From positions 1-64,000 of IMG/VR virus record IMGVR_UViG_3300021958_000045: a DNA stretch of 64,000 nt. One strand, 5' to 3'. How positions within the stretch are numbered: position 1 is the stretch's first letter; each line of letters starts with the position of its first letter. The DNA is from a virus. Lineage: Duplodnaviria; Caudoviricetes. The notes under the pieces are model-generated. The model did no database searches, was not told the origin of the DNA, and saw only the letters and a program-made list of their open reading frames with translations. Shown in pieces: positions 12,130-49,497 of the stretch. The position numbers and the translations under genes are program-made.

Positions 12130-12130
12130 A

Positions 12131-12409
12131 TTAAGGTCTGCTACCAGGCAACCCCTTACATCTGTATTGCCAGTTTATATTATAATTTAAATCATGTTTT
12201 AAAAATTCAATTTGGCCAGGATGGCCGAGCAGACTCGGAAAAAAATAACCCACTTGAGGATTATAATTTATCTGCCCGCCCATTTGTTTGGTAAAGTTAA
12301 CAGAATTATCTAAAGACCCATCAGGATGATTATCAAACGCAGGCATTTCATCTTCTAGATATTTTCTTTCGTGATTTTTTCCGAATTTTTTATTGTTTTT
12401 AGGTGTCAT
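12131..12409 (-). CDS. Hypothetical protein (92 aa)
   Basis: Fills the gap exactly between two co-directional genes. Confidence 0.55.
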   Translation of the reverse strand: MTPKNNKKFGKNHERKYLEDEMPAFDNHPDGSLDNSVNFTKQMGGQINYNPQVGYFFPSLLGHPGQIEFLKHDLNYNINWQYRCKGLPGSRP

Positions 12410-12413
12410 TATA

Positions 12414-14087
12414 TTATATACATTGGTTTAAATCGTCTTGAGTGTGATATACTACTCTTGTTTTTGCAGAAAGAGATCCTTCTGAAACAGTAAAAGAAGT
12501 AGTAGATTGAGTTAACACATAATCAGGTTCTAAAGGAATTTGAATTTCTTTTTTTAGGTCTGCAAGCGTGGCACAAGGAAACGCTTCAACTTCAAGAGAA
12601 TGATCGCTATATCCAGGCTTAACAACTTGCTTCTGAATTATTGGGCAAGCGCAAGGCGAATGAAATCTATTATCGGTTACTTCAGTTATGCATACGGTAT
12701 TCTCTTGAACTTTTTTCTTTACTAAAGAATCATCTATTTCAATATCATATTTTAAATCATTTGAAAAAGTCAATGAGCCTACTATAGTACCCTTTGAAGG
12801 ACATTCATTCATACTAAAGTTTAAAGGTCCAAAAAAACCTTCTGGGGGTTCAAGCTTTCCCTCCTCCACTGTTCTTTCAAAAGCTTCTCTAGCTAAAGCA
12901 ATCGCCTCCTCAGCAGTATTAGTAACTTCTGTGCGAGAACAATCTCCAATTAAATAGTCTGGATTTTTTTCTACAAAAGAATAATTAATCGGAGCAGAAA
13001 TTTCAAAATTTCTAGTAACATCAATAATACACCCGTCTTTCCTTTGATCATCGTTTATATAAACTTCGGCGCTATTATCCTTATCGAGAACTTCTTCTTC
13101 TTGAGCATTGAAAGAATAATTAATTGTTCCTGCTTGATGACAGTGAGTGATGCTTTTAGAATTAACCCTTAATGCAAGACAAACATCTGTTTCGCATGTT
13201 TCCATTTGATGTTTTTCATAATTATCAATAATTTTTTGCCTAATCGCGTCTTCATCAAAGCATTCTAAAGCAAAATCATATTTTGTTTTAGTGATAGTTC
13301 TATCTTCCCCACAACCACTAAACTTTTGACAATTTCCTTTAATCGATCCATTTAAACTTATTGAAACCAATCCGCTTTCATCCCATCTTAATCCTACTGT
13401 ATCGGAGGTTATACAACAATCGTCTTTACTAATTCTTTTAGTGGTTGTTTCTGATATTTGAACTGAACATTTTACAATATCAATCTGTTCGCTCCTGTTT
13501 TTCGTATACCTTCCTTCTTCATCTATACCACAAGGCATAGAAGAATTTTCGATTACATCATTAATATCATCATCTATAGATGTAAAACCACTAGGAGCTT
13601 CAAGCAATGCTTCATTAATTGCACTAACAGCTTTATCAATTAACCCTGACCCCGAGGGAGAATCTGGCCTTGATATATAATTTGATAAATCAACAAGCTG
13701 TACGGCATAAGTTCTGGTATAAGATACATTTTCATTATTTCTGCTTGTAGATACATTATGACTAAAAGATTCAATTTCTCCTATATTTAAATCTCCAACT
13801 ACTTTACATTCAATATCATCAATTCTTTGCTGAAGCTCATAAACATAAAAAAGTTGATTATCTTCAATAACTGATTCTCTACTTATTATTTTAGTATCTG
13901 CATAAGTTTTACCCAATATAGTAAAGCTAGTATACTCTTCTGTTACATCTGGCAAATATACAACATTAGTCTCGTCTGCAGGGCCAATCCAAGCCTTTAC
14001 ATTCATTGTTTTATAGCTTTTAACCAATTTTCCACCAGAGTGCTGGTGACTAATTGAGAAGCCCATTTCTGTAATATTTTCTATCAT
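12414..14087 (-). CDS. Putative distal-tail protein (557 aa, Cys-rich)
   Basis: First gene after the TMP, overlapping its stop. This is the usual Dit position; family not confirmed. Confidence 0.45.
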   Translation of the reverse strand: MIENITEMGFSISHQHSGGKLVKSYKTMNVKAWIGPADETNVVYLPDVTEEYTSFTILGKTYADTKIISRESVIEDNQLFYVYELQQRIDDIECKVVGDLNIGEIESFSHNVSTSRNNENVSYTRTYAVQLVDLSNYISRPDSPSGSGLIDKAVSAINEALLEAPSGFTSIDDDINDVIENSSMPCGIDEEGRYTKNRSEQIDIVKCSVQISETTTKRISKDDCCITSDTVGLRWDESGLVSISLNGSIKGNCQKFSGCGEDRTITKTKYDFALECFDEDAIRQKIIDNYEKHQMETCETDVCLALRVNSKSITHCHQAGTINYSFNAQEEEVLDKDNSAEVYINDDQRKDGCIIDVTRNFEISAPINYSFVEKNPDYLIGDCSRTEVTNTAEEAIALAREAFERTVEEGKLEPPEGFFGPLNFSMNECPSKGTIVGSLTFSNDLKYDIEIDDSLVKKKVQENTVCITEVTDNRFHSPCACPIIQKQVVKPGYSDHSLEVEAFPCATLADLKKEIQIPLEPDYVLTQSTTSFTVSEGSLSAKTRVVYHTQDDLNQCI

Positions 14088-17000
14088 TATGAAGAAGTTG
14101 GTAGCATTTTTAGAATCTCATTCATTGCCTGAGCTATCTTTGAAGAAATAAAGGTTTGAGTGCTTTGCATAATTTGTTGCTGCATCTGATTTAAGGCAGG
14201 TTCTACAGCATTTCTTAACCCTGCAGTATCTGCATTTATATTTAATGTTCCTGAAGTATCAATTTTAGTTTCAATTGTTTGTGTTAGACCACTAGCGCTT
14301 GCAATGGCTTCTTGTAGACTTGCAACAGCTTCATTTAATGCAGAAGCGTCGACAGATACGGTTGTTTCAGTAGCATCTGGCATACTTAATGTTAAAGATT
14401 CTTGTAGACCTTCTGGAACCATTAATGTTAAAGATTCTTGCTCTGGTGGCAGAAGTTGCATTGAAGAAGCATTAGATATAACTTCTTGTAATTTATCTAC
14501 TGCATTAATAAGAGGGCTATAGTCCATTGTTAAGTTTGGCATTTCATCGGGCATTTTAATTTTTAAAGCCTCTTCAATACCTTCAGGTAATTGCATGTTT
14601 AAGCCAGCGCTTTGAGAATCGACCTCTGGAGTAGGAGGATTAAAAACTTCATTAATTAAACCAGGGTTTTCAATTGGCGGAGCTTCAGGAGTAACGGTGT
14701 TGAGTTCAGCAGTTTCTACATTTGATTGAACATCAAATGGGTTTGTGCTCTGTGAATATAAATCGCTAATTTCATGCCCTTTAGCTTTTGCATTTTCTTC
14801 AAACATTTGCTTGTCAGCATTTAAGTCTGGCTTAACGTCTATTTGGTCTGGAACTTCTGTTTCTTTTATTATTGGTTCTGCTGGAGTATCAAATTTAACA
14901 TCTGCAAGTTGAGTAATAAACGCGTCAAAAGCTGTTACTAAATTATTCAACAAGCTTTCCATTTCTGGATTATCTGTTTCGGCTTGAGCTAGAGGATTAG
15001 CTCTTGTAGACTCACCTGCATCTGCACTTATAACGGCCTGAGGAGAACCCTGATTAAAGAAATTCTCTAAATCTAATTCTGCACCTCTTGTTTGTTTTTG
15101 TTGGTCTAATTGTGCTTTTTGCTGTGCAGCGATAACATCATGTTCAGATTTATTTAAAGGCGCTGGTTTTGCAAGTTTTTCGGTTAATTCTTTATTCTCT
15201 AGGGACTGAACAGGCTTTTGGTTACTTTCATACCTCTCTGAATACATTTTCTTTTCATTGTCACCAAGTTCAGACCAATTCCTACCATCTTGTTGACCTG
15301 TAAAGCTCTTTTTCCAAGCTTCAGACATTTTATTTTCTTTATAGTTTTCGCTATACATATCTCTTTCGCCTTGCTTAAGATCATTCCATTCTCTGCCATC
15401 TTGTTTGCCCGTATTGCTTTCAGCCCAAGCCTTAGCGAGAACATCATTGCTTGCCAATTGTTTGCGTTCGTCTCCCCTCTGAACAGATTCTTTTTCTTTT
15501 TCAAGTGTGGCTTGCTTATCTTTGTCAATCATTTGTTGCTTGATAGATTCTTTAATTTTTTCTATTGCAGATATAACTGGCTCGATAGAATCATTAAGCA
15601 CTTCTCCAGTAGACTTATCATTTTCTCCAGTTTCAAATCTTTGTCCTTGTTGATTTAAAAAGTGGCTAGTAACTTTTTCCATTAATGTTGAAACATCTGA
15701 AGAGGTAATTGTATCTTGAATCATTTTTGGTTGCCCAACTTCATCAATCTCAGAAGCCTTAACCTCAACTTCTGAAGCTTTAGATAGTCCCACTTTTACA
15801 TCTGCAACTCCTTTAGTTAAACCTTGTACTGCTCCAGTTAGTGCTATATTTGATTTTGAATCAGAGCTTTGGTCGGGCATGTAGGATGCTTGAGAAATCT
15901 GCGACTGTCTTGAAGATTCTGAACTGGATAATTTTTTTGTTTGAAAATCATCAAACTTTTGTTTATACATTTGTTTTTCTTCGTCACCCAAGCTCATCCA
16001 GTCTCTTCCGTCTTTTTTTCCAGTACTGCTTTGAGACCAAGCTTTAGACATTTTATTATCTTCATAATTTTTGGTATACATAGATCGTAGAGATTGACTC
16101 AACTCTTCCCATTGTCTACCGTCTTGTTTGCCTGTATCGCTTTTTGTCCAAGCTTCTGCAAGGTCTACGTCAGGACTATCAAATTTTGTTTTACTTAAAG
16201 TTTTACTTAGACTATCAATATTTACGTTTAATTTATTTATTCCAGGTATTGGATTCTTTTCTGCTCTAGAAGACTGACCTCTATTTGGAACAAATCCTTG
16301 TGCAGCGTTTTGAATTTTTTTGTCATATGGATCTATACCAAATTCATCTTGAACATCTTCTGCATATTTTCTAGATACTGAAGAATTTTTTGGAGGAGCT
16401 ACAAAATCAACCCCTCCATGGCTAAATATTTTTTCTTGAGCATTTACAATTCTTTTTTCGTATCTTCCTGTTCCTGTTCTCAAATTAGCTATACCCACTT
16501 GATCGGCGGTAACAGGTTTTTTGTAGCTCGCTAAAACTGATTGTTTCACCTCTGAATATGCTTGATGCAAATTAGCTTTTCCTGGAGAAGAAGCCGCTGT
16601 TCTTGAGCTTGCAAAAGGTTTGGATTTTTTAGGCTGAAACCCTAAAGCAGAATTATTAACCTTTGCTTTGCTAGCTTTTGCTTGATTTTGTTTTGCAAAA
16701 TCTTCAAGCATTTTCTTTCTAGATAATTCTTCTGGACTCAATCTTCCATCTTTATTTAAGTCATAAGCTTCATCATATGAAATTTTACTTTTTTGTTCTC
16801 TCACTTTATCAGCCTGTTTTTGCATGGTTCTAATATCTTGAGATGCATTAGCTGCGGCCTGCTGAACAAGATCCAAATCAAAAGTTTCTTCTAAACCTTC
16901 CAGTTTATTTGTTTTTGCGATCACGTCAAACGGACCTGTACCCTCAAGGCGAGACATAGTTTTCCTAGATTCTTCTTGAATTATTGGAACTCCATTGCTA

Positions 17001-41000: not shown

Positions 41001-44000
41001 TCAACATCCCAATCTTTAGGAAATTTGCCCATTAAAAAGTCTCGAGGAGCTCCGCCTACAATCTGAGCACTACCTCCAGCAGCTTGAATTTCTTTTGATA
41101 CTTTTTCAAGATATCTGGGGACGGGCATAGTTTCTGCCGCAAAGTTAGGGACAAGGTCTCTTTGTGTATTTTCTGGTTGAGCAAAGTTGGGAACCAAACC
41201 TTCAGCATTTCCACTACCTCTTCCAGAATGCTGGCCACTAAATTGATAATGAGTTCCAGTTATATTTTCATTTCTAAGGTTACGAATAGCTTCTATATTT
41301 TCAATTGCGTCATCGATCAGATCGTACTTACCCCCTTGCTTTTTCCAAATTCTCTCTAATAGAATCGCTTTCTTTTCTGCAGGCTTTAAATTCCTATAAC
41401 CAGGAACCCTTCCTCCTTTTGCTTTAATTATTTTTCCAGAACCATCGCTAGCAATTTTAATATTATTAAACATATCTGCGGTGGTCATAATCTTTTCAGG
41501 ATTAATTCCCCATTTTTTTAATTTTTCTTCAATAAATGGCACAGACTGTTTTGCTCGAGCAGTTAAGACAGTGACCGCTTGACCCTGAAGTTCTTTTGCT
41601 AACGGGGTAGGTTTAGCCAATCCTGCAGATTCAGCTTGAAACAAATCTTTAGACTTTACATTCTTAGAATAAGTGCCTAGTGTTTCGTCAAAATCATAAA
41701 ATTTTCTAAAGCCTGCGTTTCTTTTGAGGGCAAAGTTGGGAACGAGTCCTTCAGATAATTTTGATACAGTTCTCTCTAATGTGCCAGCATCTTTTGTAAA
41801 ATTAGGAACAGCTCCTTCTGAATATTTTTTTAGAGATTTGCCTGGAGCTTGTTTTTTCTGACTCTCTTGAAGCTTGACAATCTTTTGCCAAATTTGGTTT
41901 GCTTCGCCATTTAACTGGCTAATCTTTGGATCTATTTCAGCTCTGGGCCTCCCAGATTGAGACAGTTGCTTTGCTTGTCCTAGTTTGCCCTGCCACATCT
42001 TTAAAAGCCTTGATCGATCTGACTGCATATCAACAGGCTTAATAAAATTAGGCACTGCTTCTTGAGAATTTAAATAACTAGCGTAATTGGGAACAACTCC
42101 TTCTGAATATTTCTTAGCAGACTTGCTAGATATTTGTTTCTTTTGTTTCTCTTGGAGGCCGACAATCCTTTGCCAGATTTGATTTGCTTCGCCATTTAGT
42201 TGACTAATCTTGGGATCTATTTCGGCTCTAGGTTTTCCAGATTGAGACAGTTGCTTTGCTTGTTCCAGTTTACCTTGCCACATCTTTAAAAGCCTTGGTC
42301 GATCAGACTGCATGTCTACAGGTTTAATAAAATTAGGAACTACTCCCTCAGAATAAAAGCCTGCCTTTTCATCTCTATTAAAATTCTTATCCCCCTTTTT
42401 TAATATTTTTGTATATGCATCCATGGCAAAATATTCGCCAGATGCAGTTCCACTTAAAATGGAATTTTTTGTATTAAACCCTAAATTTGCTTCTGACCAA
42501 CTATTAAATGACTCTATACCATTTTCTTTAACCCATTTACTAACTTTAGTTTTTAAAGATTTAATATTTTTAAATTCGATTTCATCATTTCCAATCTGAA
42601 AAGTTCCCGAGGTTGACATTCCTGGCTTGATTCTTTGTTTTAATTGTGGGAATGCATTGATTATGGTTTCCCAAGGAGTTTTGCCTGAAGAAGCACGAAT
42701 TTGGTCAAAGGTACTGTGAATCTCTTTATTTTTCCATCTTCTTTTTCCTGTAAAGCCTGCGATTTTATCAAAATTTCTATTAGCTCCCCCCTTCATAGAA
42801 GGATCGTTTACATCTGCTCCTTTAGCTCTTTCTGAATATAAAATGTCAGTCTTGTTTTCGTAATCGTACTCTCCCTTGCCATAAGTAAATCTAGTTGTTG
42901 TTCCAGTTTTTTTATCAGTTACTTGTATAATGGGTAATTGACCATTCCATTCATTAGTAGTCTTCATACCGTCGAACCCTTTAATATCTTTTTGGGCTCT
43001 TGCAAGATTTTTCTCTCTAATTTTTTTAAGTAATTCTGGCTTGCCCCAAGTAGACACAAAATTTGGTATACTTTTAGCAGCATCTGGAATTATTCCTTGT
43101 GCAGCCCTCTTTTTACCACCAGCAGCAATAGCTTTACCTCGTCCAGCTACTGTTCCAGCGGCAGCCTTCTTTTGCTTTTCAAAATCTTTATATTGTTTTA
43201 ATTTTTGATAACCTCCCCTAGAATCAATAATTTTTTTAATTCCACTGCCAATATTTTTCTTGCTTGATGAAACTTTAGCATCTACATTTTTGCCTTTTCT
43301 TGAATCTAAATTAAATGCAGTTGTTAAGTTTTTTTGAAATTCAGGACCAGGAAAATCCCATCCAGCGGTTCCAGGATCGTTTTTTACAACTGAATTTTTA
43401 ATATAATTTAAAGTTGCTTCAAATACCCTTCCTGTGAATTGAGGGCCTGCAGACTTATCCAAGTAATCGCTTAATGGGCCAGAACCTTTAACCTTTCCTC
43501 TTGGCATAATATCTCTAGCTACATCTCCTATGGCAGAAGTCATATGCTTATCAACAATACTATGGAAGCTTGAGCCTTGTGATTGAGCCAGTCTACCGAT
43601 AGTGAAGTTTCGTGCTTCAAATTTTGTGCCTTTAAAAGCTGGAGGAACTGCGCCATCAAACACTGAAGATGCTGCTACAGTTTGATTTTTTCCTGTTTCT
43701 GATTTGCCCGCTTCTGCTGTTATAATACCCTGTCCAGCTGCATTTAATTTAATTACCTGATTGTTGGTTGCTTTAAAATTTGGTACATAACCAGTAGAGT
43801 AAAAGCTTTTGGTTCCATAGTCAGCGGCAGAATAAAATTTTTCAATACCATTGTCATAATTGAATCTTTGCATCATATCTTGATTTAATATTGCAGATGC
43901 GCCTGAACCCATAAAGTTTTCAACAATTACTTCATCTGTATTTGCAACGATATCTTGCTTTTGAGTTTTTGTTTTTTGAAAGTTTTTAATTAATACAGGG

Positions 44001-45775
44001 GAAGCAGATTTAGAAGCTCCCCCAACTCTACGATTTATGTCTCTTTGTTCTGCAGCAAAAGAAGGAATAAATTTTGAATCAGTATTTGCAGGAACATAAC
44101 CTTTTGACATGCCAAGATCTTTGCGTCCCGCTGCAGCTCTAGGACCTCGGCCATAAGGAACTACAGTGCCTTGATTACTTACTGCAACGTTGGCTAACGT
44201 AGACGACGAAGCGATTTTTTTTAAGAGCGCATCTTGCGCTATTCGTTCGGTCGTTTGTTTTTTTAAGACGCTGAGTATTGCCTGCTCTTTTGCCACTTGG
44301 CTTGTAGAGTCGCTTAGAATTTTCTGTCGAACCCCCTCTTCGCTCATTAAAATTTGAAGAATTGCAGCTTGCAAACCCTCTTGACGTTTAGTTTCACTGT
44401 TGATTGAAAAGATTGACTTCAATGCGCTCGCACCTTGTTGAGCGACGAATGCAAATAATTTAATAAATGCCCCACCAATTAAAACCATGCCAGGACCACT
44501 GATGAAACTACCAATACCTTTTAATAAAGTCTTGCCAATATTAGTGCCACTATCTTCTCCTACTAAATTATTTATTCCGTCAGCCAGAGTCTTAACTGTT
44601 TCTAATACTTTTTCAATGCCAGGACCCAAAGTCATTTCTCCAAAATTGGCAGCCAACTCTTTTATAGATAATCCTGTTTGACTAAGTAGAGCAGACATAG
44701 TTTTATTCAACTCTTCATTTCTTTGGGTGGCTTCATTAGTACTATTGTTTGCAGTTTTAAGAGCTTGATCGTATATACTAAATTCGCTATTTAAGTCTTT
44801 AATTAAAGCTTTAAGGTTATTAACCTGAAACACTCCAGCAATTAATTCATCAGTTGCGGCTTTTTGAGCATCGCTTAAAGTATCGTAACCTTTTGCATAA
44901 TCTTGAAGCACTGCCATGCCAGAACGAAATGCCCCAGTTGCATCTTGCGTTGCAACACCGATTTCTTCTAAAGCTTCTCTTACGCTAGATCTCTGCAATC
45001 TTGTAAATATACTTTTAAATGAGTTTCCTATTACTGCTCCACCTCTAGCTGTTTGCTGTTGAACACTAGTAACAGCAGCAAGAAGTTCATTAAATTGCAC
45101 TTTTGCAGATTGTGCAGTTGCTCCAGCTCTTGCTAAACCATCTGCTAAATCTTTAGAAGATACTGCAAAGGCTGCATCAACATTAGCCAATCTATTGACA
45201 ATATCTGAAGAATTTATAGCTGCATCATTAAAACCATTTATGGCTGCCGTAAGAGCATTTACAGCCTCCACAGAATCCATGCCAGACAATCTTGTTAACG
45301 TCATTGCATCAGCAATACGCTGAAGGGTTTCGTCAGCACTTAAACCTTGTCTAGCAAACTCTGTTGCGGCAGCGGCTATATCTTGAAAAGATGATGCAGT
45401 ATCTCTTGCAACATCAAATAAAGCTCCTCCAAAATTTTGTAAAGCAGACTCAGACATATTCATAATAACATTAACGTCTTTTAATGCTTTTTGAACTTCT
45501 ATGGCTGATTGAGCCATTGCTTTTAATGCATCAGAAACTCCATTAATAACGGAAACTGCAGCACCAAACGCAAATACACGAGCGACAGCAGCGTCCATGG
45601 ATTTTTCAAATTCTCCCATTTGGCCAGTAATTCTACCAAGAGGCTGGACGAGTCCTTTTTCATTCAATTGCAATTTAATGGGCTGAATTTTCTTTTCGCC
45701 CATTTTGGCTTGATTAGCAATATCTTGATCAAGACCTACTGCTTTAACTCTTACTCTAATATTTTCTTGTGCCAT
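14087..45775 (-). CDS. Giant tail tape measure protein (10,562 aa) with embedded enzyme domains
   Basis: Single uninterrupted 31.7-kb ORF located after the tail tube and chaperone-position genes. The N-terminal Ala-rich region (AATEFARQG...LTRLSGMD...LANVDAAFAVSSKDLADGLARAG...GNSFKSIF) is typical of TP901-family TMP cores. Confidence 0.9.
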   Translation of the reverse strand: MAQENIRVRVKAVGLDQDIANQAKMGEKKIQPIKLQLNEKGLVQPLGRITGQMGEFEKSMDAAVARVFAFGAAVSVINGVSDALKAMAQSAIEVQKALKDVNVIMNMSESALQNFGGALFDVARDTASSFQDIAAAATEFARQGLSADETLQRIADAMTLTRLSGMDSVEAVNALTAAINGFNDAAINSSDIVNRLANVDAAFAVSSKDLADGLARAGATAQSAKVQFNELLAAVTSVQQQTARGGAVIGNSFKSIFTRLQRSSVREALEEIGVATQDATGAFRSGMAVLQDYAKGYDTLSDAQKAATDELIAGVFQVNNLKALIKDLNSEFSIYDQALKTANNSTNEATQRNEELNKTMSALLSQTGLSIKELAANFGEMTLGPGIEKVLETVKTLADGINNLVGEDSGTNIGKTLLKGIGSFISGPGMVLIGGAFIKLFAFVAQQGASALKSIFSINSETKRQEGLQAAILQILMSEEGVRQKILSDSTSQVAKEQAILSVLKKQTTERIAQDALLKKIASSSTLANVAVSNQGTVVPYGRGPRAAAGRKDLGMSKGYVPANTDSKFIPSFAAEQRDINRRVGGASKSASPVLIKNFQKTKTQKQDIVANTDEVIVENFMGSGASAILNQDMMQRFNYDNGIEKFYSAADYGTKSFYSTGYVPNFKATNNQVIKLNAAGQGIITAEAGKSETGKNQTVAASSVFDGAVPPAFKGTKFEARNFTIGRLAQSQGSSFHSIVDKHMTSAIGDVARDIMPRGKVKGSGPLSDYLDKSAGPQFTGRVFEATLNYIKNSVVKNDPGTAGWDFPGPEFQKNLTTAFNLDSRKGKNVDAKVSSSKKNIGSGIKKIIDSRGGYQKLKQYKDFEKQKKAAAGTVAGRGKAIAAGGKKRAAQGIIPDAAKSIPNFVSTWGKPELLKKIREKNLARAQKDIKGFDGMKTTNEWNGQLPIIQVTDKKTGTTTRFTYGKGEYDYENKTDILYSERAKGADVNDPSMKGGANRNFDKIAGFTGKRRWKNKEIHSTFDQIRASSGKTPWETIINAFPQLKQRIKPGMSTSGTFQIGNDEIEFKNIKSLKTKVSKWVKENGIESFNSWSEANLGFNTKNSILSGTASGEYFAMDAYTKILKKGDKNFNRDEKAGFYSEGVVPNFIKPVDMQSDRPRLLKMWQGKLEQAKQLSQSGKPRAEIDPKISQLNGEANQIWQRIVGLQEKQKKQISSKSAKKYSEGVVPNYASYLNSQEAVPNFIKPVDMQSDRSRLLKMWQGKLGQAKQLSQSGRPRAEIDPKISQLNGEANQIWQKIVKLQESQKKQAPGKSLKKYSEGAVPNFTKDAGTLERTVSKLSEGLVPNFALKRNAGFRKFYDFDETLGTYSKNVKSKDLFQAESAGLAKPTPLAKELQGQAVTVLTARAKQSVPFIEEKLKKWGINPEKIMTTADMFNNIKIASDGSGKIIKAKGGRVPGYRNLKPAEKKAILLERIWKKQGGKYDLIDDAIENIEAIRNLRNENITGTHYQFSGQHSGRGSGNAEGLVPNFAQPENTQRDLVPNFAAETMPVPRYLEKVSKEIQAAGGSAQIVGGAPRDFLMGKFPKDWDVEVFGLEQEKLQKILSPSLTKEGLVGKDFGVFKAKSGGQDFEFSMPRREKKVGAGHRGFEVEVDPNMGRKEAAQRRDLTINSISYDPLTKKFIDPLGGRQDLQDGIMKPTSPRFKEDPLRVLRSMQMAGRFNLSADKELINYSREMVGQFKDLPKERVREEWMKWASKSTNPEKGLQFLKESGWIKHFPEIDKLQGVPQSPKHHPEGDVFNHTKLVTNAMANNKNWQMLPEKERSKLMFSALTHDFGKVTNTQINKDGSITSYGHEKAGVAPMKSFLGRIMSQGEASKLSKDLTPFVERHMFHSNFPQNLTQKSINRLTKDVGDLSKFQILLESDMGKNLSDDVTARKFTQVDEKNISRMSSIAKESGIYKEPPKPIVQGRDLIQEKLVEPGPQMGSVLKHLEEAQISGEFKTKKEGIEYFKKHREDILKRINKFTPRGKMLRRRASGEVPQLENYSQGLIPNFARIPSMFNIKQTKSGKEYVMEKDLELAKMQFPDAKFKQWGKNPKMHFISGHKPQNKLTKDKISFDSDVKLQEFAQFAAQKGYPEIMGAVVKSTQVAQNSSGNRNYDRLTSWKNKREEVPSQVNIKDVQSLKAEDYQSFPMGKTGADLKRLYNPDSFDNVSKTIFTSTDTQKALAKSAEKFTTKNVDSAEDILKFVKKARGSESISEEQISKLYQEFAEMKGLAIMSDGHIPNFASPAFNKFIKDNIHNKNYKSISDKVTKLNLSVGNAYGVGSNIPQDVKILNRLTSQLSKVTNPLMGPTGKGSRDIVYESKEFAQKFNKTEYDKIQKEITTLQKEKFQLSRPSNPGKNPDKVKQIESEIFKKQEQLKSTEFNKAKSEAIRKEDQDIQRLFQEKFTVQKDKIISPTGKTVSTQDLNSLEEEFNEYMFAKQQKRTNTNEELVLPNFSVTAPETVPNFVNIKAIRELAKRGATNGERSAAQNMLAKHGFKSKTITSRSWHDKLFLENYIKNKGPKSDLEMLIKKGYSEKELISLRKQYENDPQSVKIASHGIVPNFTRQKDRVRDSDYQTQLYKENFKDSSRSEDVNSFTSVDESSTSSKTFAEGMVSKSVSSSSSSADSKSFAGGTISDVTSQETETLATGFIPNFSIESDRMKEAGQASQLYGQNVGYKDTQVKKLEINGKKERVVVNNKEKFYSTGADVQKAFSLPFKPSGGMVLPPSHTKVGKERAREFQTLIKSYASGITPMAEPSPPQLAYGAVPNFSIFRKYSPNTLRKSKIKDYSNEEFAEISRALSEFNLMSMGARGGVINTRLKSESRADGLFRAKTEAQKEDFRQFFNSREFRSLNKYIQEKLKVDFPDLSRGYGYNVDPFEIRQLENVSAGTVPNYANLTLYRGQKNPTLDRPNIGKNMPSFKGAQTPQDVINIIQNFVKSHVSGPLSGRRDIGELDNVAPSGATSFSTSETIAKEFAGGGLNKPAKDNILSTQVSEKNVFNKKKILKLLNRGANPKKGIYPEVEKFKQAMASGQIQKWAEQVGGLFLNVSGRRNDPALMQFNKKEYGRKEYDFYGRSMQSIVPQSDIGWNQNKTSQISSREHEVMQIFNDGIIPNFAPAAGKAGRQKNKPYQDDPDNVIDLRPFTTYDYSLLFPQRGGGAPQSTVRGSGPYAKKYQSQFLVGWNSKGINPKIPKEADRIAKIGDLVERDVKTIVKAHSENFVRAFGEQEIRMQDSSIIDRVVQKHFNEGTLTAMAGNAFEAAANAAFSNIPVNAGGGDFDVRGPTDQLRKFFNWPSSHGSIGDFKANAQSGDIKASMADKILKELDYQGLLSGQVAKEKADFEKYDKQKAATNKQATMNRFRAMPSANALRGAAIKGKQTAQGQQAHEKIPGYMRSGEELENYYKSNQNFYSGIVPNFIINKNLSQEKIPKLVDRNVTQQSYALGKQSEKINLQTRDKNVESKIVQEQEKDLSKQDEFISLSQGLISQKIDNASDSKSVNSYNKSADTQSVIKRQDSSQAKEKKIESTINNSYISYGEKESSSNSSFAESIKSKQSDFINGFQSFSQGMVSKDVSTDSKSFSQGMVSKDVSTDSKSSSQGMVSKDVSTDSKSSSQGMVSKDNQQASSEVFSQGFSLESNKVSSNSTNQENRVFGREDNFSTLYRLRDNFQENESSTKENVLNRRKESIEKRKNKQVIQKYFQGYTPEKQKPSDREFKYLKNDNKEKDSKTEIIESIYSQGKEISKERLSNGYVPNFALNVNSASRGNDALGAAIKRESQAGIPMHKIRIGQSNRLKNESNPGGVGVYNTIDEPRGLGQGISRSISQGINPQKHGLVANGYVPHSTFSVPNFIGRFIPKMFKRGGSKAADAAIPTPTGGGMFGGGGGMMNTIFMGQMMFGGIEGQTGTAGGYAADAAGDALQIAAITSMITDKKKWVALAASVGALNGVLDQYSKSLKVQGDQIERNIQINGKAIESATQVVSAQSRLNSAIEGGDPENITKAIKSLQKQIESFPSGSSAIDDLRSALVTANGDVQKMSTALEKFSASALKVNQLGQLTIKAQAANENREGVLPFGFGPTQLPDFVPFFGGEKGELKDEARGEIRNIGMQSVQGLELAEEQVTSLSKKLSKINFEEFSAEDIRSTIKEFSSTLDEETRTLFDQIVDNIPDEGMVDFTVGIKEQLKLRKESIEAGKAVGKTSSALGNLKSTIVNLSTAVSRSISELNSNITKAFDIAEKQFNSELSIMTGMNYMTPNEARSAQEEFSVTRINAETAAGTEFEVSKFVNQLMKDTKMEDFEGEDGSVFSGKLADVLNKMYLKSSELEQGDGRFMADDIVSAIERIDFDERTQEEQELIDSVRQLNEKANQQIALLKLGNEIAAREDLLQARKNLESTQLDVTAREGEIMEQFAFGQSFEPETQLDLDVQARATQDMVGLMEGLFGKSPELNDMRQQANMQNAIGNVNRILMMLGVETETGFDAKADANIDMGDVVNSMKKALVEQDLPDGTQKMVSYMIKQLTAQQGALASTPSDRSELTRKTLQSTAEALNIDLEELGLDPRTMGFNDLTSIADQLGDNGVEIRLLSSIDEGIQTLSKTLQPEQGISAEEIVKAIRNIKVADTEKVEQRTKASKQQDEARQKIQNIAIDGANVNIGGSTKINTSGNITIHGGANSTEPPQPAPSRGGVPNFARNSSTRDRKKSPIRGLKESLNEDKLKESRGFEQFAGKTFTGGRALQVANYYPGAIDSIYREVEALEKKGITNALNNVQLTIPASSNSLANFQYQGAVVTNTVDEGNVTPRSYLNKIENVHDLSPRDSEFSMTGMIDNSSSQTQAISTVRRSSQNASANQIANNYSIANQKSSWKSARAQSSIGDTYNAGAALRVANYYPEAKETIQKEIKTLKDRGVKNPINEIQFTVPDQELSEIGPKSIIDSVITNRVDDGSVAESNYLTKIQNTHKTGLRIQKQKEFISPSAEQRAENLVKNEKILRNNLHQNIISKRKDSQKTKEQEVYSESVWGETTYAPKQTMAQKLAGKTFTGGAALRVAKYWPGASESISREITALENKGVMDPISNIQLTVPGGKSQYFSSYDGPVVTNKIDEGGVAPTNYINKIRGVHKLGPQEGAFASHGTLDEDVDDKTKFMRGYLERNPYVPNFAAPQKGARRIINTARALGEDMDIWDLEPESIKPSAVANWNSSGAALLKQVHGLQGNSQGGLSKLQRAFIEEMRKEENQQIFSKIGVENFDFDQAKFMDPEIGEPQIFRPMVIEYMGGNKDGQVVPVEEATKAKPRDFQSGKYIISQIDSTNPDIDELELFTGEENRAIRQAVANQDADSEETMRRQRAAKATQRAVERGGPKARSDAGPNVRATKTLGDSAPKVGTLTEAAKQNMKGLESHIIPKDLADDIRSQEAITARAAENATEQASKEIGKSAEGGFVRQAGTWLKRQLQTLRILTGRSTEQKQGINPVKEEEILSQIENEGVRTYSGDTPTNPLETNEDVKSILAEKVDGEVDTGADRVHKQKENYLQRERSVTEKIQRAIQANRIRKNRQKKQRQRQKELEQKARRTLEEQKAQQRQEEIERVRKIQEAEIDKGLGRTRTSMAIGEGSEFKDVLTYNNPELRELSSWDKIKKTALKFVGRYKGSEIEEVERQNNIVRTQQMQDLASGENIASEETTFSKLQKLSNERSVTTSTSATSESLFQRPASTPRNPWTTSVVSHRSQKSPVVEMAEELIEQRAMNISGSVSPIKDAPEESKKQSILRQVIGGSTSPEGVDGLFSLRAETIDPPLLERIRRAKSQLFPEHGNVSFRQAGIVPSKSPSTVLSDFDILASDGTLIGTMDSTGIIHPPTVETKPVIYDANGRAVGAQKVAGVQTAQAQLQLAPANTGELAVSASQADVLNQAQVSKISNKLKSGSDLSVEEMNVLQQWANNNPDLVNSIETGQENKTLLLENADVKSRASRLTDKQFEISKVTSAAKAENQIDELINNPEFVDRATRTMPGDPIHLQRMFDNIDSRKSVPLPPTETALDKVKTNSNINRRANELQKQLVLREIRQKAPLELQKRLRLPANFNEADLNKKFLSEKQRLQQLIDNPNIPSNKRGIIEEDLRILTRNKNEHLNALDPKLMERQDLFINRQFKELIADAGLSVFTGGGAEGVSKLDVTNQAMAKKLGPAAFDLDGDFVKLREEISKVLFLDPENTAGFDKNLAESLVDRELRVIGLDSQGKGFGLGDRMRENLINLDRFVGMGMGEDFLRQAKTQNLHKSDINVARLVSFMDLMDPAGNKLDGKAIENLKKGGIDKIFQKIQKGELFSQTAIRGKTVPMIPKDPEAVLNNLKNADLASQVNASRILENEGKLSSLAASKGNGIVNPASLELAAQELEAGRQPLSTSDVGEDGIDLTKTRMTAEELASLQSTMDSLDGDLDQKAPDQRLSTLSQSLDPENTIETSRNIIAEKQQQLINDRLVEKAEFDRLTSLGNAATQEDLQRMSELLQIDNLRVSQGRSSNFDRENVTRANNQLASFNQQSVRTASNEVGVKLTKREDSPVRSRRSEEAIEELDALEEAKADPVEQAAAVRETGAETEAKVREVASVDDNIVQQTIEEVEEVDDNWKKSKEEYLADPEKAATSERLLEKGKAHKRLIDYLVETKGWKNTMQAGKGIWNGVSSIVPIAGSAKDWTAEKWGTVRERISAWRAEQAKKHPEGIAKQMAEENHRAEQSRKAEAKLAMEMNIGSKPIAFDTSESLTQTFKQTEKFNRSQSGWTEYEDKVLDQLTGRMRVEQNGKDIITYDPKLSPYVGSKDIKEAHALRRSLNPKDHMMKRITAGENIKFLKAGEVMKKVNQGTTAVKGALLDKQISAPKSLTSSNVFQRRLIESETSGKHINVPEEFSKTITRKGNDYRALDLDKVAEGLRESTRVVDYQEPDGSIKTYSVDEFEKKRSEAFSNIQKRAELSSRSISETSTSELGDFKKESISEKIRMEQEKFMRGVLPGDIDGNPGRYTLTKEGSLLRAKEINRQANAVNLQRAGQAFDSAMNYGGGPLRGATVGTLLPAAGILAFQTETGMSVLDSAANMIGSEPKHFVLEKQVRNKDNVSVGTGNYLSTAGTDLIQQQKTLLNKKKQAGLLDAPEEASWHDKALTKIGLKQMAESKVEGDKNATELARKNIAAKIARRNLEGLAGGEEGIPGLSEYTMASQDNLEDARAQPMFFESREAATQYAHENNLSGYSAKGLGDNSEERAFLRSYGKGFAQGKVGEGNDLAESVGLSQFTGSEVAGVLSANLADAAIVGTRARMGTSTAAAMTKGAALKTAARRFAGVTAAEFFVARGEKARMDYSGMEGHLRAGGNYALGFGTGLAFESKNPLLGFAVGAPLGAAAYTARVGLGDYLNFDPDEINNTKYAMSSEELLERQKEIINLAKSKAESARQLLDKYYLGSFVNKGKRLGVDYSSKEAFHTFYDQAERDRYYQLAIEQGEIMRSAYRLAEQMDTRILANRDLYQAGTLQKNEKPNEKLVKHNYTADAVSKILSDTVTLFDPNLVTDLKEQTKMEKEGFTQKQILEKLNSKDFTSTKINEKGEEYVYQPNTEELVNLRQQKSRTYLKGLERVHDFNARQGLLRSSTDYAGASSLEETMEIGKMPEKEFLKEKISWDPDSNLGKIKDRRAQIFYKDGKKITDYDEWMKEMDRGSLDYGKLTYPYEMAQVLGIDTVDHRDTNRRIPMLKVQARIKEQFQNFRTTGRIEKKPAQAVDKILQGMGIASQGGDNSKETKINNFILGKQDDGWNVQYDEATKSTIMKHEKHGLVSFPGMGDVNNERSFERLYEKHMQDLTKSRYEEPMQSYYKAQKNFASGEQTPATRKAFEQSQAERVKNTRGISDADPSREYGRPGYGEENYNKSKFKTFEEFDEKIPKEQRIYLSAMSALLKRGEEAQYQSKDMQGQDVEYYEALADLQADEVMHAQFNKALIERNMGVQASKTQITEAGYSMQKGLGYGTQVDAINKDFESAEVGSANILKLGSLNPEDINGYVSRFQGGLESKREEDIKLRKRVSEREAEMSVIDKKLTSNISQKERDHLTAERGEIVKSLSETKLKRANLKPFLTAPDKVAQGMQLRKNSQTQFESTINRLSKQLGIDEEISLDRKVGSLYNHFSKNPLYTGKSNIEDSKKSAPGDVSKNVLEQKDRWMLREEAIQMMVARNRRLRLEKKKLEKASPGSQIIQQKTFNDDDEFELRRTMNIFADGRSSATKKSTSKQFQKDLDEWHSSRDTKSSYASIIRDQETYSELLKKKGLYLRTGEEDSIAGQAILEGKIGNQSYRGTYFRDLFDSVMTRGSNQGESFNGLLDQKKQAMQDWELVKGLPEMLPYTATMESAYRKGMGLDTKNDDLLGAIPYEEIQKSKQKLNNQLMTAGYSMNWWRDKDVSTRTEDWNKLLIENFRKPVKEDLLKSGGARLAGGIIDEADGTVRAQKDFANVLDEDGNIIQSADERAADALVQNIKKDFKLFDVNQDGIITPDEINLLDDRFDPAKFNPEEGIGYNESARKIAGTRRGTLTPEIFRALTTKFDGSGLGDGPDGGLSRAEIFQNDGSGNDKNKSIVQDRVRDFLKNKYVKQVSPYGESLKEGLNSYFYGGTEGGVRAVEIWKELAMLDKNSIPEASREDFSKAQSEAMKLIQNVGLHRSIISKGQKLDQRSQDRYGDLFKQKMDLQLSPEDIKNYRHLETELGSDKWKGKEHLPAYREMQETMNAYRERRDKVSFINNEFNQGSTKEGMLAGRAFSLPNFLINQGLINEGDSKAGEPWAPAAIGDDWQNYSDRYFRGISSVAQAMDSSTAEKVAKDLGINIKTGGQGGWAGEPDTIFETEKDPQDITNQITGYDEAALDRQFGAQFKEVDTARRLSEEKEFINKYSNQNAMSVMANEMGNLSSNASAKVAGITGRGGDDNTNLTNPFGKSKEIAASWRERETSIQEKHKEGLEKMVSNAKERKISRESFTDVRDPLKFIQQYSKDYNERKGFLWNKVDNAKGAYDQKVATGADAETKALALQRYKEAIQEELFHRQMAYPDSTMNDVLNRKNYLDIQNTDWKLGPAYQDWYDSYAGEKIMLKTGEGVDIPVSDKQDAAKKLLQARGDEMRAVMMQRGWMTEDGEYAKRIGDNAITPEKINELLVDTHPGNKYVYKAGEKIDRLQNIWSEKFGGKFTKGALSLFGNESAKFVLNATGAPGDLTDTSSASEQGGGFVVSRERRDAGLKAQQALQPEVVGRFNILDPNEKLMMAISKSAQNGFKGGGPEDFTSIYQGMSLSGRESFKRKYKEAIEQKVPPSIVSQLNNYISNVDKNDLYATAKGEGVPDYLKRKIDSRTPLTRGERDELREYKKREMVARRIVGEKRRSSGISRAAGQMMDRLGTSEPLARFISSAGSSAVLQYRFMNETDGNIKKLEDLDIQGQGATKINGSYIRTEKDRKRKLESLARKRIAHFNNFKKIISNHPEAKHNILFDSVNPRGFRANPEMASISENIIRRPVISELSDEEKKAALRLNIDVADKLVRTDSNGVPIIQEESRKTMSRLEGTGPFDVIAKTNKLEGLEETFDLDLVQQAAANASQDIRTMQKQADKVREQKSKISYDEAYDLNKDGRLSPEELSRKKMLEDFAKQNQAKASKAKVNNSALGFQPKKSKPFASSRTAASSPGKANLHQAYSEVKQSVLASYKKPVTADQVGIANLRTGTGRYEKRIVNAQEKIFSHGGVDFVAPPKNSSVSRKYAEDVQDEFGIDPYDKKIQNAAQGFVPNRGQSSRAEKNPIPGINKLNVNIDSLSKTLSKTKFDSPDVDLAEAWTKSDTGKQDGRQWEELSQSLRSMYTKNYEDNKMSKAWSQSSTGKKDGRDWMSLGDEEKQMYKQKFDDFQTKKLSSSESSRQSQISQASYMPDQSSDSKSNIALTGAVQGLTKGVADVKVGLSKASEVEVKASEIDEVGQPKMIQDTITSSDVSTLMEKVTSHFLNQQGQRFETGENDKSTGEVLNDSIEPVISAIEKIKESIKQQMIDKDKQATLEKEKESVQRGDERKQLASNDVLAKAWAESNTGKQDGREWNDLKQGERDMYSENYKENKMSEAWKKSFTGQQDGRNWSELGDNEKKMYSERYESNQKPVQSLENKELTEKLAKPAPLNKSEHDVIAAQQKAQLDQQKQTRGAELDLENFFNQGSPQAVISADAGESTRANPLAQAETDNPEMESLLNNLVTAFDAFITQLADVKFDTPAEPIIKETEVPDQIDVKPDLNADKQMFEENAKAKGHEISDLYSQSTNPFDVQSNVETAELNTVTPEAPPIENPGLINEVFNPPTPEVDSQSAGLNMQLPEGIEEALKIKMPDEMPNLTMDYSPLINAVDKLQEVISNASSMQLLPPEQESLTLMVPEGLQESLTLSMPDATETTVSVDASALNEAVASLQEAIASASGLTQTIETKIDTSGTLNINADTAGLRNAVEPALNQMQQQIMQSTQTFISSKIAQAMNEILKMLPTSS
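15230..16162 (-). repeat. Two pairs of ~32-aa AWxxSxTGxxDGRxWxxL...MY repeats near the TMP C-terminus
   Basis: Pairs at about 15955-16162 and 15230-15441, seen directly in the translation. Confidence 0.9.
16727..16762 (-). other. EF-hand-like Ca-binding loop within the TMP
   Basis: DLNKDGRLSPEE fits the 12-residue EF-hand consensus. Confidence 0.55.
20090..20125 (-). other. EF-hand-like Ca-binding loop within the TMP
   Basis: DVNQDGIITPDE fits the 12-residue EF-hand consensus and is preceded by FKLF. Confidence 0.55.
30285..31480 (-). repeat. Three dispersed copies of an ~85-aa module within the TMP
   Basis: ALxVAxYxPxAxxxIxxExxxLxxxG...TxP...VxTNxxD[ED]GxV...YxxKIxxxH at about 31200-31480, 30765-31020 and 30285-30550. 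Confidence 0.9.
34781..34953 (-). repeat. 48-nt tandem repeat, about 3.6 copies, encoding S[FS]SQGMVSKDVSTDSK
   Basis: Unit cttagagaccatgccttgagaggaacttttggaatcggtagacacatc starts at 34781, 34829, 34877 and 34925. Confidence 0.95.
35600..36290 (-). other. PD-(D/E)xK-like nuclease domain 2 within the TMP
   Basis: GNAFE (35861-35875), DFD (35801-35809) and DFK (35726-35734); same pattern as domain 1. Confidence 0.5.
36315..36950 (-). other. Mono-ADP-ribosyltransferase domain (R-S-E clade) within the TMP
   Basis: LYRG (36932-36943), TSFSTS (36734-36751) and EHE (ExE, 36332-36340), in the canonical order. Confidence 0.8.
39720..41128 (-). other. cca: Class II CCA-adding tRNA nucleotidyltransferase with HD phosphatase domain, within the TMP
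   Basis: VGGAPRD..DWDVE, VGKDFGVF, GAGHRGF loop, EAAQRRDLTIN, DPLGG, EDPLRVLR, ERVREE, followed by HD motifs HHPEGDVFNH...THDFGK...GHE. Same motif order as E. coli Cca. Confidence 0.93.
41240..41725 (-). other. HAD-superfamily phosphatase domain within the TMP
   Basis: All four HAD motifs in order: DFDETL (DxDxT, 41681-41695), VLTAR, a Lys motif (AEKKAIL), and LIDDAIEN (41308-41320). Confidence 0.85.
41826..42340 (-). repeat. In-frame direct duplication of an ~75-aa helical module (period 285 nt)
   Basis: PNFIKPVDMQSDR.RLLKMWQGKL.QAKQLSQSG.PRAEIDPKISQLNGEANQIWQ occurs twice; matching DNA anchors at 42329 and 42044. Confidence 0.95.
43200..43770 (-). other. PD-(D/E)xK-like nuclease domain 1 within the TMP
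   Basis: GRVFE (43418-43432), WDF (43352-43360) and VDAK (43274-43282) match the E...D...[DE]xK order of the restriction-endonuclease fold. Flanked by PNF motifs. Confidence 0.5.
44700..45600 (-). other. Core tape-measure (PhageMin_Tail/TP901-like) domain within the TMP
   Basis: Characteristic TMP core residues as above; boundaries approximate. Confidence 0.8.
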
Positions 45776-45810: not shown

Positions 45811-46896
45811 CTAAGATTCATCTAAGAAATCCATGATTGATAACGTACCTTTTTTCTTTCCTTGTTTGTCTTTTGCCAAATTGAATATGTCCTTACCTTG
45901 TCTTTCAACTCCCATTTTTTGATAATCCTCTTTATCCGCACCGACCATTGAGAATGATTTTTCTGAATTATTTCCTTTTTCCATAAGCTTTCTTGCTTTT
46001 TCTCCTTTTTCTGCCCACTCAAGGAGTTTGTCAGGATCTCTATGAAAATGCTTTGGTGGGGAAGTATGTTTAATAATCGATCTTAAAACTCTCGCATAGC
46101 TTAATAAATTAAGTTGATAAAAACTAAGTTCATGAACAGCTTTACCAAAAAATTCCACTGGAGATTCTTCAATTAAAGAGAAATACGAAGTAAAAAATGG
46201 AGAAACAGATAAGTCCTTAATGGCTTCGATATCTAATTCTGCCATTGAAGTATTATAACATTTAATAATTAGAGCAATATCTTCGTGAGAAAGATAATCT
46301 TGATCCTCTGAAGCAAATAAAGGAGAAGAACATAAATCATCTTCATATAAAGAATAAATCATAGTATAACTATTCATTTGAACATTTGCGTAGGCTTCGC
46401 AAGTAGTACCAATATGTTTTTGTCTTTTCGCTTCTTTTTCTTTTAATTTTTTTTCAACTTGATCTATACTTTTTTGAACAGTTGCGACTTGACGATCTAA
46501 AGTAAGTTTTAATTTTGTTTGCTCTAAATTTTTAATATACTCTTTTTGGGATGCAACCCATTTTTCATCTTCTTCTGTCCACAATCCACTATCATACATT
46601 CTTTCTAAAGCTTCTTTTTTTGTGGGAATTCCCCCTGACTTAGCTTTATCAAAATACTCTTCATATTTTTCATCTAGATGAATTTGATCTTGCAAAGAAA
46701 AGTGCTTTGCATAACCTTTGATTATTTTTCTAGAAGAATTATACAATACACTACTCTTTGGAGGTTCAATTTCAACTATCGAAGAACCTTTAATTAAAGA
46801 ATTTAAAACTTTCCTGAGCCTAATTTCTTTAAGCTCTTGAATTTCATCTATGCGTTTATCTTCTTGCTCTTTATCTTTTAAAGCAGTTTTTGCCAT
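45811..46896 (-). CDS. Putative tail assembly chaperone-like protein (pre-TMP)
   Basis: Directly upstream of the TMP; helical/coiled-coil composition. Assignment by position. Confidence 0.5.
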   Translation of the reverse strand: MAKTALKDKEQEDKRIDEIQELKEIRLRKVLNSLIKGSSIVEIEPPKSSVLYNSSRKIIKGYAKHFSLQDQIHLDEKYEEYFDKAKSGGIPTKKEALERMYDSGLWTEEDEKWVASQKEYIKNLEQTKLKLTLDRQVATVQKSIDQVEKKLKEKEAKRQKHIGTTCEAYANVQMNSYTMIYSLYEDDLCSSPLFASEDQDYLSHEDIALIIKCYNTSMAELDIEAIKDLSVSPFFTSYFSLIEESPVEFFGKAVHELSFYQLNLLSYARVLRSIIKHTSPPKHFHRDPDKLLEWAEKGEKARKLMEKGNNSEKSFSMVGADKEDYQKMGVERQGKDIFNLAKDKQGKKKGTLSIMDFLDES

Positions 46897-46912
46897 GCAT
46901 TATGGCCCTAAA

Positions 46913-49482: not shown

Positions 49483-49492
49483 AAACAATATA

Positions 49493-49497
49493 TACAC
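49493..49497 (-). promoter_or_regulatory. GTGTA motif upstream of the 49482 gene
   Basis: 10 nt before the ATG, immediately after the tube terminator. Confidence 0.55.

Follow-up and report, generated by a model that had tools for sequence, protein, structure and literature searches.

What does a tape measure protein (TMP) of more than ten thousand residues contain besides a ruler for the tail, and what would the remainder be for? The question is raised by a stretch of 64,000 nucleotides of viral DNA (Duplodnaviria; Caudoviricetes; positions 1 to 64,000 of IMG/VR record IMGVR_UViG_3300021958_000045), hereafter called the window, in which one open reading frame (ORF) takes up 31.7 kb. The source is an uncultured, probably marine, lytic siphovirus-like phage. 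An earlier note, made from the sequence alone, had read this ORF as a TMP with a canonical N-terminus and with recognisable enzymes embedded in the protein. Our analysis leaves us in hardly any doubt that the TMP is real and that it contains at least one intact embedded enzyme. The protein is built in three parts, a TMP N-terminal core, an array of about 20 cassettes, and a fast-evolving, helix-prone C-terminal half:

Positions 14087..45775, minus strand: the whole ORF, from ATG to stop in the ORF listing, 10,562 amino acids (aa), 31.7 kb, cysteine-free.
Positions 43784..45775, minus strand: TMP N-terminal core, aa 1-664, defined by hidden Markov model (HMM) matches, with PF10145 at aa 122-307.
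Positions 30170..43783, minus strand: cassette array, aa 665-5202, about 20 modules of 80-840 aa bounded by a PNF motif.
Positions 14090..30169, minus strand: C-terminal half, aa 5203-10562 (about 5,300 aa), the presumed ruler and tip-docking part.

A frame of this size could be an assembly chimera or the product of fused gene calls, and the source, a single 79,989-bp virus contig without a terminal repeat of which the window is the first 64 kb, is a metagenomic fragment. Four other assemblies, however, also contain long open frames. One of them, an 82-kb IMG/VR record from a second metagenome (G001), encodes a 10,437-aa orthologue that is collinear with the giant protein from its first residue to its last, with 58% of the amino acids identical, and the remaining three frames encode 8,172 aa (G003), 7,181 aa (ENA protein P0001) and 7,487 aa (ENA protein P0002). 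Synonymous divergence (dS) from G001 is 0.4-2.4, near saturation in most segments, and the ratio of non-synonymous to synonymous divergence (dN/dS) is 0.025-0.31 across all segments where it could be estimated. Because independent assemblies stay open, dS is near saturation and dN/dS is low, a chimera or a chance frame can be excluded, the probability that we would still leave to misassembly being vanishingly small. One relative is carried on a contig of 181,755 bp. CheckV puts the completeness of the source contig at 57%, which gives a genome of about 140 kb, and hence the giant gene is not 40% of the genome.

The N-terminal core is that of a TMP, as the earlier note had it. PF10145 matches aa 122-307 at 1.8e-28 (100.2 bits, cut-off 33.2), TIGR01760 matches at 6.4e-37 (127.4 bits, cut-off 28.8), and ten TMP PHROGs match the N-terminus. 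Large siphoviruses, among them Bacillus phage Tsamsa, the Lactococcus 949 group and SPbeta, have TMPs that share 25-32% identity with this domain. The only two transmembrane-like hydrophobic segments of the whole protein, at aa 62-80 and aa 424-446, lie within the core, which is 89% identical to that of G001 with a dN/dS of 0.045.

Whether the array contains true enzymes is answered most clearly by the cassette that lies at aa 1543-2051:

Positions 39623..41149, minus strand: complete class II CCA-adding enzyme with an HD motif, aa 1543-2051.

To judge from its profile and motif matches, this CCA/HD cassette is certainly an enzyme of that family, and it is the one firmly identified enzyme of the array. 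It matches phrog_2244 at 3.4e-66, PF01743 at 5.5e-19 (69.2 bits, cut-off 23) and PF13735 at 30.9 bits (cut-off 27), and in the PDB it finds chains of CCA-adding enzymes and poly(A) polymerases down to 3e-20, with 3wfo and 6ibp at about 1e-20. The motifs of the family are present as GGAPRD (GGxxRD, aa 1574), DWD (DxD, aa 1588), RRD (aa 1665), EDPLR (EDxxR, aa 1706) and ERVREE (ERxxE), and the first four of them are kept in an alignment consensus that includes G001 and P0002. The HDIG model stays below its cut-off (16.2 versus 27.6), with the HD dipeptide itself present at aa 1834. Against NF008137, the equivalog model of the bacterial multifunctional Cca, the cassette scores 174.6 bits where 451 are required, which marks it as a member of the family and not as the equivalog. 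It is 94% identical to its counterpart in G001, with a dN/dS of 0.056. Free-standing phage CCA enzymes (phrog_2244; e.g. those of Vibrio phage F95 and Sinorhizobium phage phiN3) belong to the same family at 25-36% identity to the cassette, and the embedded and the free-standing enzymes presumably carry out the same chemistry. The free-standing enzymes, however, are encoded by separate genes that are expressed after infection, and four of them contain 4-15 cysteines, whereas the copy within the TMP has none among 510 residues.

Four further cassettes carry motifs of the enzyme classes that had been proposed for them in the earlier note:

Positions 41192..41740, minus strand: HAD-like phosphatase cassette, aa 1346-1528 (DFDET, LTAR, K, LIDD).
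Positions 36302..36964, minus strand: ART-like cassette, aa 2938-3158 (LYRG, SFSTS, REHEV).
Positions 43067..43783, minus strand: nuclease-like cassette 1, aa 665-903 (FEA .. WDF .. DAK).
Positions 35396..36301, minus strand: nuclease-like cassette 2, aa 3159-3460 (AFE .. GGGDFDV .. GDFK).

The first of these, adjacent to the CCA/HD cassette, is likely a HAD-like phosphatase. Its motifs DFDE[TV], LTAR, K and LIDD align in five homologues of 44-94% identity, the fifth of which, P0154, is without motif IV, and its dN/dS of 0.025 is the lowest that we estimated. Its language-model neighbours, at 0.91, are all HAD-type viral clusters, among them HAD_SAK_1 of RNA-repair proteins, acid phosphatase B and the T5 dNMPase. 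The cassette has no Pfam or NCBIfam match, and a search of three genomes with PF10307 gave nothing even at E 10.

For the ART-like cassette the assignment stays at the level of motifs. The triad YRG, S[FYW][ST]T[SR] and ExE[VIL] is kept in true homologues. The distance from S-T-S to E-x-E in ART enzymes is usually 40-80 aa; here it is about 135 aa, which is unusually long, and the most conserved block of the cassette falls within it. No Pfam model matches the cassette, PF18760 (ART-PolyVal) has no match in three genomes, tblastn against INPHARED phages was empty at E 10, and the language-model lead, to a cluster in which 22% of the members carry ART-PolyVal, is weak at 0.85. The nuclease-like cassettes are likewise identified at motif level, by a putative PD-(D/E)xK pattern. 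They are paralogues of each other (hhalign 85%, E 6e-6) with the E..D..D-x-K columns aligned, and the block AFE .. GGGDFD .. GD[FY]K of cassette 2 is kept in five homologues, including those of G001, G003, P0003 and P0005. Neither has a Pfam, PHROG or PDB sequence match, cassette 2 is without an INPHARED match even at E 10, and profile searches of the PDB with the ART and nuclease cassettes returned noise only. Among INPHARED phages no DNA or protein match was found outside the TMP core and the CCA cassette. The set of enzymes originally seen in the ORF thus divides into a firm CCA/HD enzyme, a likely HAD-like phosphatase, and ART and nuclease cassettes for which only the motifs speak.

What holds the array together is a short peptide, here called the fence motif, which stands at the boundaries of the cassettes:

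Positions 19295..43798, minus strand: span of the 24 copies of the fence motif, [AS]-x-G-h-[VI]-P-N-[FY].
Positions 34088..34381, minus strand: a domain of about 80 aa, aa 3799-3896 (RE..IRVG..NPxGxGVYNTxDEPxGLxQGI), with a fence motif on both flanks.

The proline of the motif falls at aa 665, 904, 1147, 1229, 1242, 1324, 1346, 1529, 1543, 2052, 2285, 2497, 2508, 2606, 2697, 2813, 2938, 3159, 3461, 3799, 3894, 4732, 5200 and 8825. The core [VIL]-P-N-[FY] thus occurs 24 times in the giant protein where 0.2 occurrences are expected. A logo of 639 distinct family sites gives a nine-residue consensus of [AS]-x-G-[FLY]-[VI]-P-N-[FY]-A, and 144 of the 152 family members carry the motif. No cassette is commoner in the wider TMP family than the domain of about 80 aa, which occurs in more than 130 cluster representatives, most of them proteins of TMP length. 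A copy of the motif in a 438-aa tail protein was dismissed as chance, its orthologues being without it.

The synonymous codons of the fence motif vary freely, and therefore it is the peptide and not the DNA that is conserved; a DNA-level recombination site, which we had also considered, is ruled out on this ground. The motif is most likely a signal for the handling of the protein. That it serves as a cleavage site is a possibility that the sequence lets us hold only tentatively, and the same degree of belief goes to a hinge, a packing joint or a chaperone joint. Autoproteolysis at the motif is unlikely because the flanking folds vary from cassette to cassette.

If the motif were a cleavage site, the TMP gene could be a mere vehicle of expression, the cassettes being cut apart late in the infected cell that produces the virus, where they would work or be discarded. 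The tail would then receive the N-terminal core and the C-terminal ruler and nothing else. The boundaries have the look of a polyprotein, in that each cassette is set off by a motif and some boundaries carry the motif doubled, and maturation of TMPs by cleavage is known for lambda gpH and T5 pb2. Polyproteins of the picornavirus and potyvirus type have short conserved cleavage motifs, and a short conserved peptide likewise stands at each module boundary here, but the likeness is one of analogy only, with no protease identified in the giant TMP system: HExxH does not occur anywhere in the protein, and no peptidase family was found among the ORFs scanned. Excision of the middle would also split the TMP core from the ruler, expression that is late and at a low level is ill suited to making repair enzymes, and the removal of cysteine from the CCA enzyme would be pointless in a reducing cytoplasm. 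The precedent of gp96, discussed below, favours carriage in the virion as well. We therefore regard processing in the producer cell as unlikely.

Comparison with relatives shows that cassettes are gained, lost and reordered at the fence motif. P0001 and G003 are collinear with the giant protein except for missing blocks whose ends sit on fence motifs, and P0002 has its CCA cassette at residue 4840, against residue 1543 in the giant protein. Eighteen of 33 breakpoints lie within 25 aa of a fence motif, where 7.2 are expected at random and the maximum in 2,000 trials was 17. In P0011, a relative of 2,334 aa, a HAD-like cassette (aa 782-935) adjoins an ART-like cassette (aa 929-1164), whereas the protein of the window has 1,400 residues between them. 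The variable cassette content that the earlier note had expected of orthologous TMPs is thus borne out by the comparison of G003, P0001, P0002 and P0011. In addition, dS from G001 is 0.55 for the CCA cassette (39623-41149) and 0.42 for the cassette at aa 904-1146 (42338-43066), as against 1.2-1.8 for their neighbours, which suggests a recent exchange of single cassettes between lineages.

The C-terminal half is of a different character. No family or PDB sequence match was found in it apart from two loops of the EF-hand type. Internal repetition in the giant protein is sparse; a unit of 95 aa occurs twice and one of about 140 aa three to four times, and a further repeat lies near aa 9600-10200:

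Positions 20090..20125, minus strand: EF-hand-type calcium loop, aa 8551-8562, by the pattern DxNxDGxIxxxE.
Positions 16727..16762, minus strand: EF-hand-type calcium loop, aa 9672-9683, by PF13202 (36 bits, cut-off 25.9).
Positions 30236..31696, minus strand: three to four tandem repeats of about 140 aa, aa 4694-5180.

Loops of this type are also present in G001 and G003. By a crude index, the helix-prone fraction is 0.62 in the C-terminal half, 0.48 in the cassette half and 0.78 in lambda gpH. Identity to G001 over most of the C-terminal half is 34-52%, rising to 66% at aa 9325-9824 and to 53% in the final 238 residues, and the dN/dS of this half is 0.24-0.31. In contrast, the enzyme-like cassettes are 78-94% identical to those of G001 at a dN/dS of 0.025-0.11, the least conserved cassettes reaching up to 0.23; the non-synonymous evolution of the enzyme-like cassettes is three to ten times slower than that of the C-terminal half. 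By these comparisons the cassettes are under strong, enzyme-like purifying selection, much stronger than that on the ruler half.

These rates bear on the proposal that the protein is nothing but a ruler, its cassettes being former enzymes that were exapted as length or spacer for a very long tail and that have no catalytic role after ejection. The length of a TMP does set the length of the tail, at 0.15 nm per residue, and by extrapolation, as with the 1.5 µm of the earlier note, the tail would measure 1.6 µm if all residues count and about 0.9 µm if only the parts outside the cassettes do. The lengths of the relatives differ by thousands of residues, and most cassettes are without a recognisable catalytic family. 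However, all of the CCA-adding motifs and the HAD motifs are intact, and so slow a non-synonymous evolution of the enzyme-like cassettes would be needless in a spacer. A pure ruler is in our judgement very unlikely.

A second feature that extends over the cassettes is the lack of cysteine. Not one of the 10,562 residues of the giant protein is a cysteine, whereas the other ORFs of the contig average 1.3%; relatives have 0-7 cysteines, and the mean across the 152 family members is 0.017%. Lambda gpH is also cysteine-free (0 of 853 residues), and therefore the absence resembles a trait of TMPs. That the purge extends over the CCA cassette fits what would be expected if the cassettes share the fate of the TMP, which is stored outside the cell and has to pass through a narrow channel. 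Together, the cysteine purge and the stronger selection on the cassettes fit a virion-borne polypeptide that would be threaded through the tail.

The closest case in print is gp96 of Thermus phage P23-45 (also P74-26, G20c and TSP4; Chaban et al. 2024), a 5,002-aa TMP whose N-terminal part is an active virion RNA polymerase that transcribes the pre-early genes (PMC10770324). Its authors propose that the polymerase acts at the TMP pore during DNA entry (PMC10770324), and the record for tail length, nearly 1 µm, belongs to P74-26, a phage of this group (PMC10034513). The likeness lies in a giant TMP with an N-terminal nucleic-acid enzyme that acts, or in the present protein would act, in the cytoplasm; in the case of gp96 the virion carries this enzyme, and the tail is of extreme length. 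The differences are that gp96 has one enzyme and not an array, that no fence motif has been described in it, that it has 5,002 and not 10,562 residues, and that it serves transcription and not tRNA repair. We saw no sequence similarity between the two, and a hidden RNA polymerase like that of gp96 was looked for and rejected, the giant TMP having no conserved DxDxD. The earlier note, which had cited the TMPs of P23-45 and P74-26 for their length, had been aware of no described TMP with such a cassette array, a statement that is only partly right. For a TMP that bears an enzyme gp96 is a precedent (PMC10770324), whereas in open-access text no paper was found that describes a TMP with an array of cassettes, the PNF fence motif or a CCA enzyme borne by a TMP. 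The giant protein is therefore an extreme case of the enzyme-bearing tape measure, a kind already known from gp96.

Because gp96 is a published precedent (PMC10770324), delivery of the cassettes is a credible idea, and by analogy we think it fairly probable that the virion carries the cassette half and that the tail brings its enzymes ready-made into the host. In this model, which follows what has been proposed for P23-45 and its virion RNA polymerase fused to the TMP, the tail would incorporate the whole protein as an extended, metastable chain and expel it ahead of the DNA. The C-terminal half would act as the ruler, probably dock in the tail tip and then form a channel through the envelope, while the N-terminal cassette half would reach the cytoplasmic side, refold and act before any phage gene is expressed. 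There, the CCA/HD enzyme and the neighbouring HAD-like phosphatase would restore the 3′ ends of tRNAs that host immunity has damaged, and on the sequence evidence tRNA 3′-end repair is the likely role of this pair. The other cassettes would be further enzymes of take-over or counter-defence. Immunity of the kind in question is exemplified by Cas12a3, which cuts the CCA tails of tRNAs and for which a viral counter-measure was stated as not known (PMC12851939).

Several points weigh against delivery. To begin with the array itself, a statistically secure family assignment could be made for one cassette only, and the four to five large relatives contain no further Pfam enzyme. TMPs are present in three to six copies per virion, which limits the dose of enzyme. 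Folded domains of 25-55 kDa, in three copies, exceed the lumen of a tail tube of about 4 nm, and therefore the model needs storage in an unfolded state followed by refolding. That no protease was found, as noted above, belongs here too. AlphaFold2 gave no confident fold for any cassette: the predicted local distance difference test (pLDDT) score was 37 for aa 2813-3470, from an alignment of 13 rows, and 34.5 for aa 1330-2060. The latter stretch includes the certain CCA enzyme and so amounts to a failed positive control, which makes the models uninformative.

The size of the lumen is also the starting point for a different placement, in which the cassette half lies outside the tube, either inside the capsid, which it would reach through the connector, or as a bolus where head and tail meet, and only the C-terminal half measures the tail. 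Internal or ejection proteins of other phages sit in this way, folded enzymes are too large for the lumen, and the cassettes are at the head-proximal end of the TMP; moreover, the C-terminal half alone, with about 5,300 aa, already equals the P23-45 class of tails. Against it, long tails are assembled apart from heads, as established for lambda-like phages, and in P23-45 and P74-26 a TMP of 5,002 residues, including the polymerase part, goes with a tail of nearly 1 µm (PMC10770324, PMC10034513). At 0.15 nm per residue these 5,002 residues give 0.75 µm, which set against nearly 1 µm suggests that the enzyme part counts toward the length of the tail in P23-45. We consider a cassette half outside the lumen quite unlikely and prefer the model in which the whole protein, cassettes included, is stored in the tail.

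Two further groups of proteins invite comparison. Polyvalent proteins of phages and conjugative elements (Iyer, Burroughs, Anand, de Souza and Aravind 2017, PMC5512222), a description in which tape measure proteins are never mentioned, also bring together many unrelated conflict-type domains in one polypeptide, typically ART, nuclease and nucleotidyltransferase domains. The prediction for them is that the polypeptide comes into the cell together with the DNA and that its domains are separated when deployed. The giant TMP differs from them as an essential structural carrier whose boundaries are marked by a fixed peptide. Of the several unrelated effector domains that characterise polyvalent proteins, it has one that is secure, one that is likely and three at motif level. 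An embedded zincin-like MPTase, a hallmark of the group, was also sought and rejected on the lack of HExxH, as was ART-PolyVal on the absence of a PF18760 match. The second group comprises TMPs with cell-wall hydrolase motifs (mycobacteriophage TM4, PMC1796659; T5 pb2), in which catalytic modules inside a TMP must survive storage in the tail and act after ejection. These modules, however, work outside the cytoplasm, on the cell wall, and a protein has one or two of them, whereas the CCA cassette would need cytoplasmic tRNA and nucleotides.

The surroundings of the giant ORF agree with its assignment. The order of genes is TerL, unassigned head genes, tube-like genes, two ORFs in the position of the tail chaperones, the giant ORF and large tail genes, which, as far as the predicted genes tell, is the order of a long-tailed phage with the giant ORF in the TMP position and with neighbours that are weakly assigned:

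Positions 59506..61371, minus strand: terminase large subunit (phrog_2 at 5e-22, PF03237 at 2e-9), which anchors the head-to-tail order.
Positions 48631..49497, minus strand: upstream tail-tube-like gene, 288 aa (PF18906 at 5.5e-5, below cut-off; phrog_290 at 9e-6).
Positions 45811..47779, minus strand: two ORFs of 288 and 361 aa in the chaperone position, without a family match.

The placement of one 31.7-kb ORF at the TMP locus, made at the outset, is thus upheld by the frame itself, by the gene order and by independent orthologues. A second weak tube or major-tail match lies at 49568-50884. The two ORFs in the chaperone position are large and are separated by a gap of 16 bases; they do not overlap as a frameshift pair would. 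No sheath was detected, and phmmer searches of the PDB with three neighbouring tail proteins gave no match. The two tail genes directly downstream of the TMP (10237-14087, minus strand) are rich in cysteine, at 3.4% and 3.5% compared with 1.3% for the contig, and are without a family or PDB sequence match. The window contains no tRNA genes and no Rfam families. A search for prophage relatives in 185,579 species genomes matched a single 2.4-kb contig of a metagenome-assembled genome.

At its other end the window begins with three genes on the plus strand, which look like a phage-borne set for the maturation of collagen:

Positions 1-672, plus strand: collagen-like ORF with GPPGxx repeats, running off the start of the contig.
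Positions 699-1550, plus strand: cyclophilin-type peptidyl-prolyl isomerase (PF00160 at 1.7e-35).
Positions 1547-2194, plus strand: 2OG-Fe(II) oxygenase of a prolyl-hydroxylase-like family (PF13640 at 4.6e-14).

The far part of the contig (62001-79989), which runs on past the window, encodes a sigma-70 region-2-like protein (63375-64085), a GAF-like protein, a family-29 (sialyltransferase-like) glycosyltransferase (66306-67166), an Ogg-like glycosylase, and homologues of Pfam GP88 (PF17338) and of mycobacteriophage L5 gp82.

A bolder version of the delivery model can be put forward as a speculation, one that we ourselves think rather unlikely. The fence would be a processing code, and a tail of more than 1 µm would be a magazine that releases about 20 separate, refolding enzymes ahead of the DNA, among them the CCA/HD and HAD repair pair, which would pre-empt immunity directed at the tRNA tail (e.g. 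Cas12a3); the cassettes would be swapped between phages at the motif like cartridges. Even without these additions, delivery of the cassettes would mean that TMPs are a general route of protein injection for long-tailed phages and that P23-45 is not a one-off, and it would provide the first candidate for a viral answer to immunity that cuts the universal CCA tail of tRNA. The roughly 20 modules, conserved, strongly selected and without a known family, would form a reservoir of new phage enzymes that act early, and the fence motif would offer a defined handle on how unfolded proteins are stored in a tail and released from it. The giant TMP itself would imply the longest virus tail yet, at 0.9-1.6 µm.

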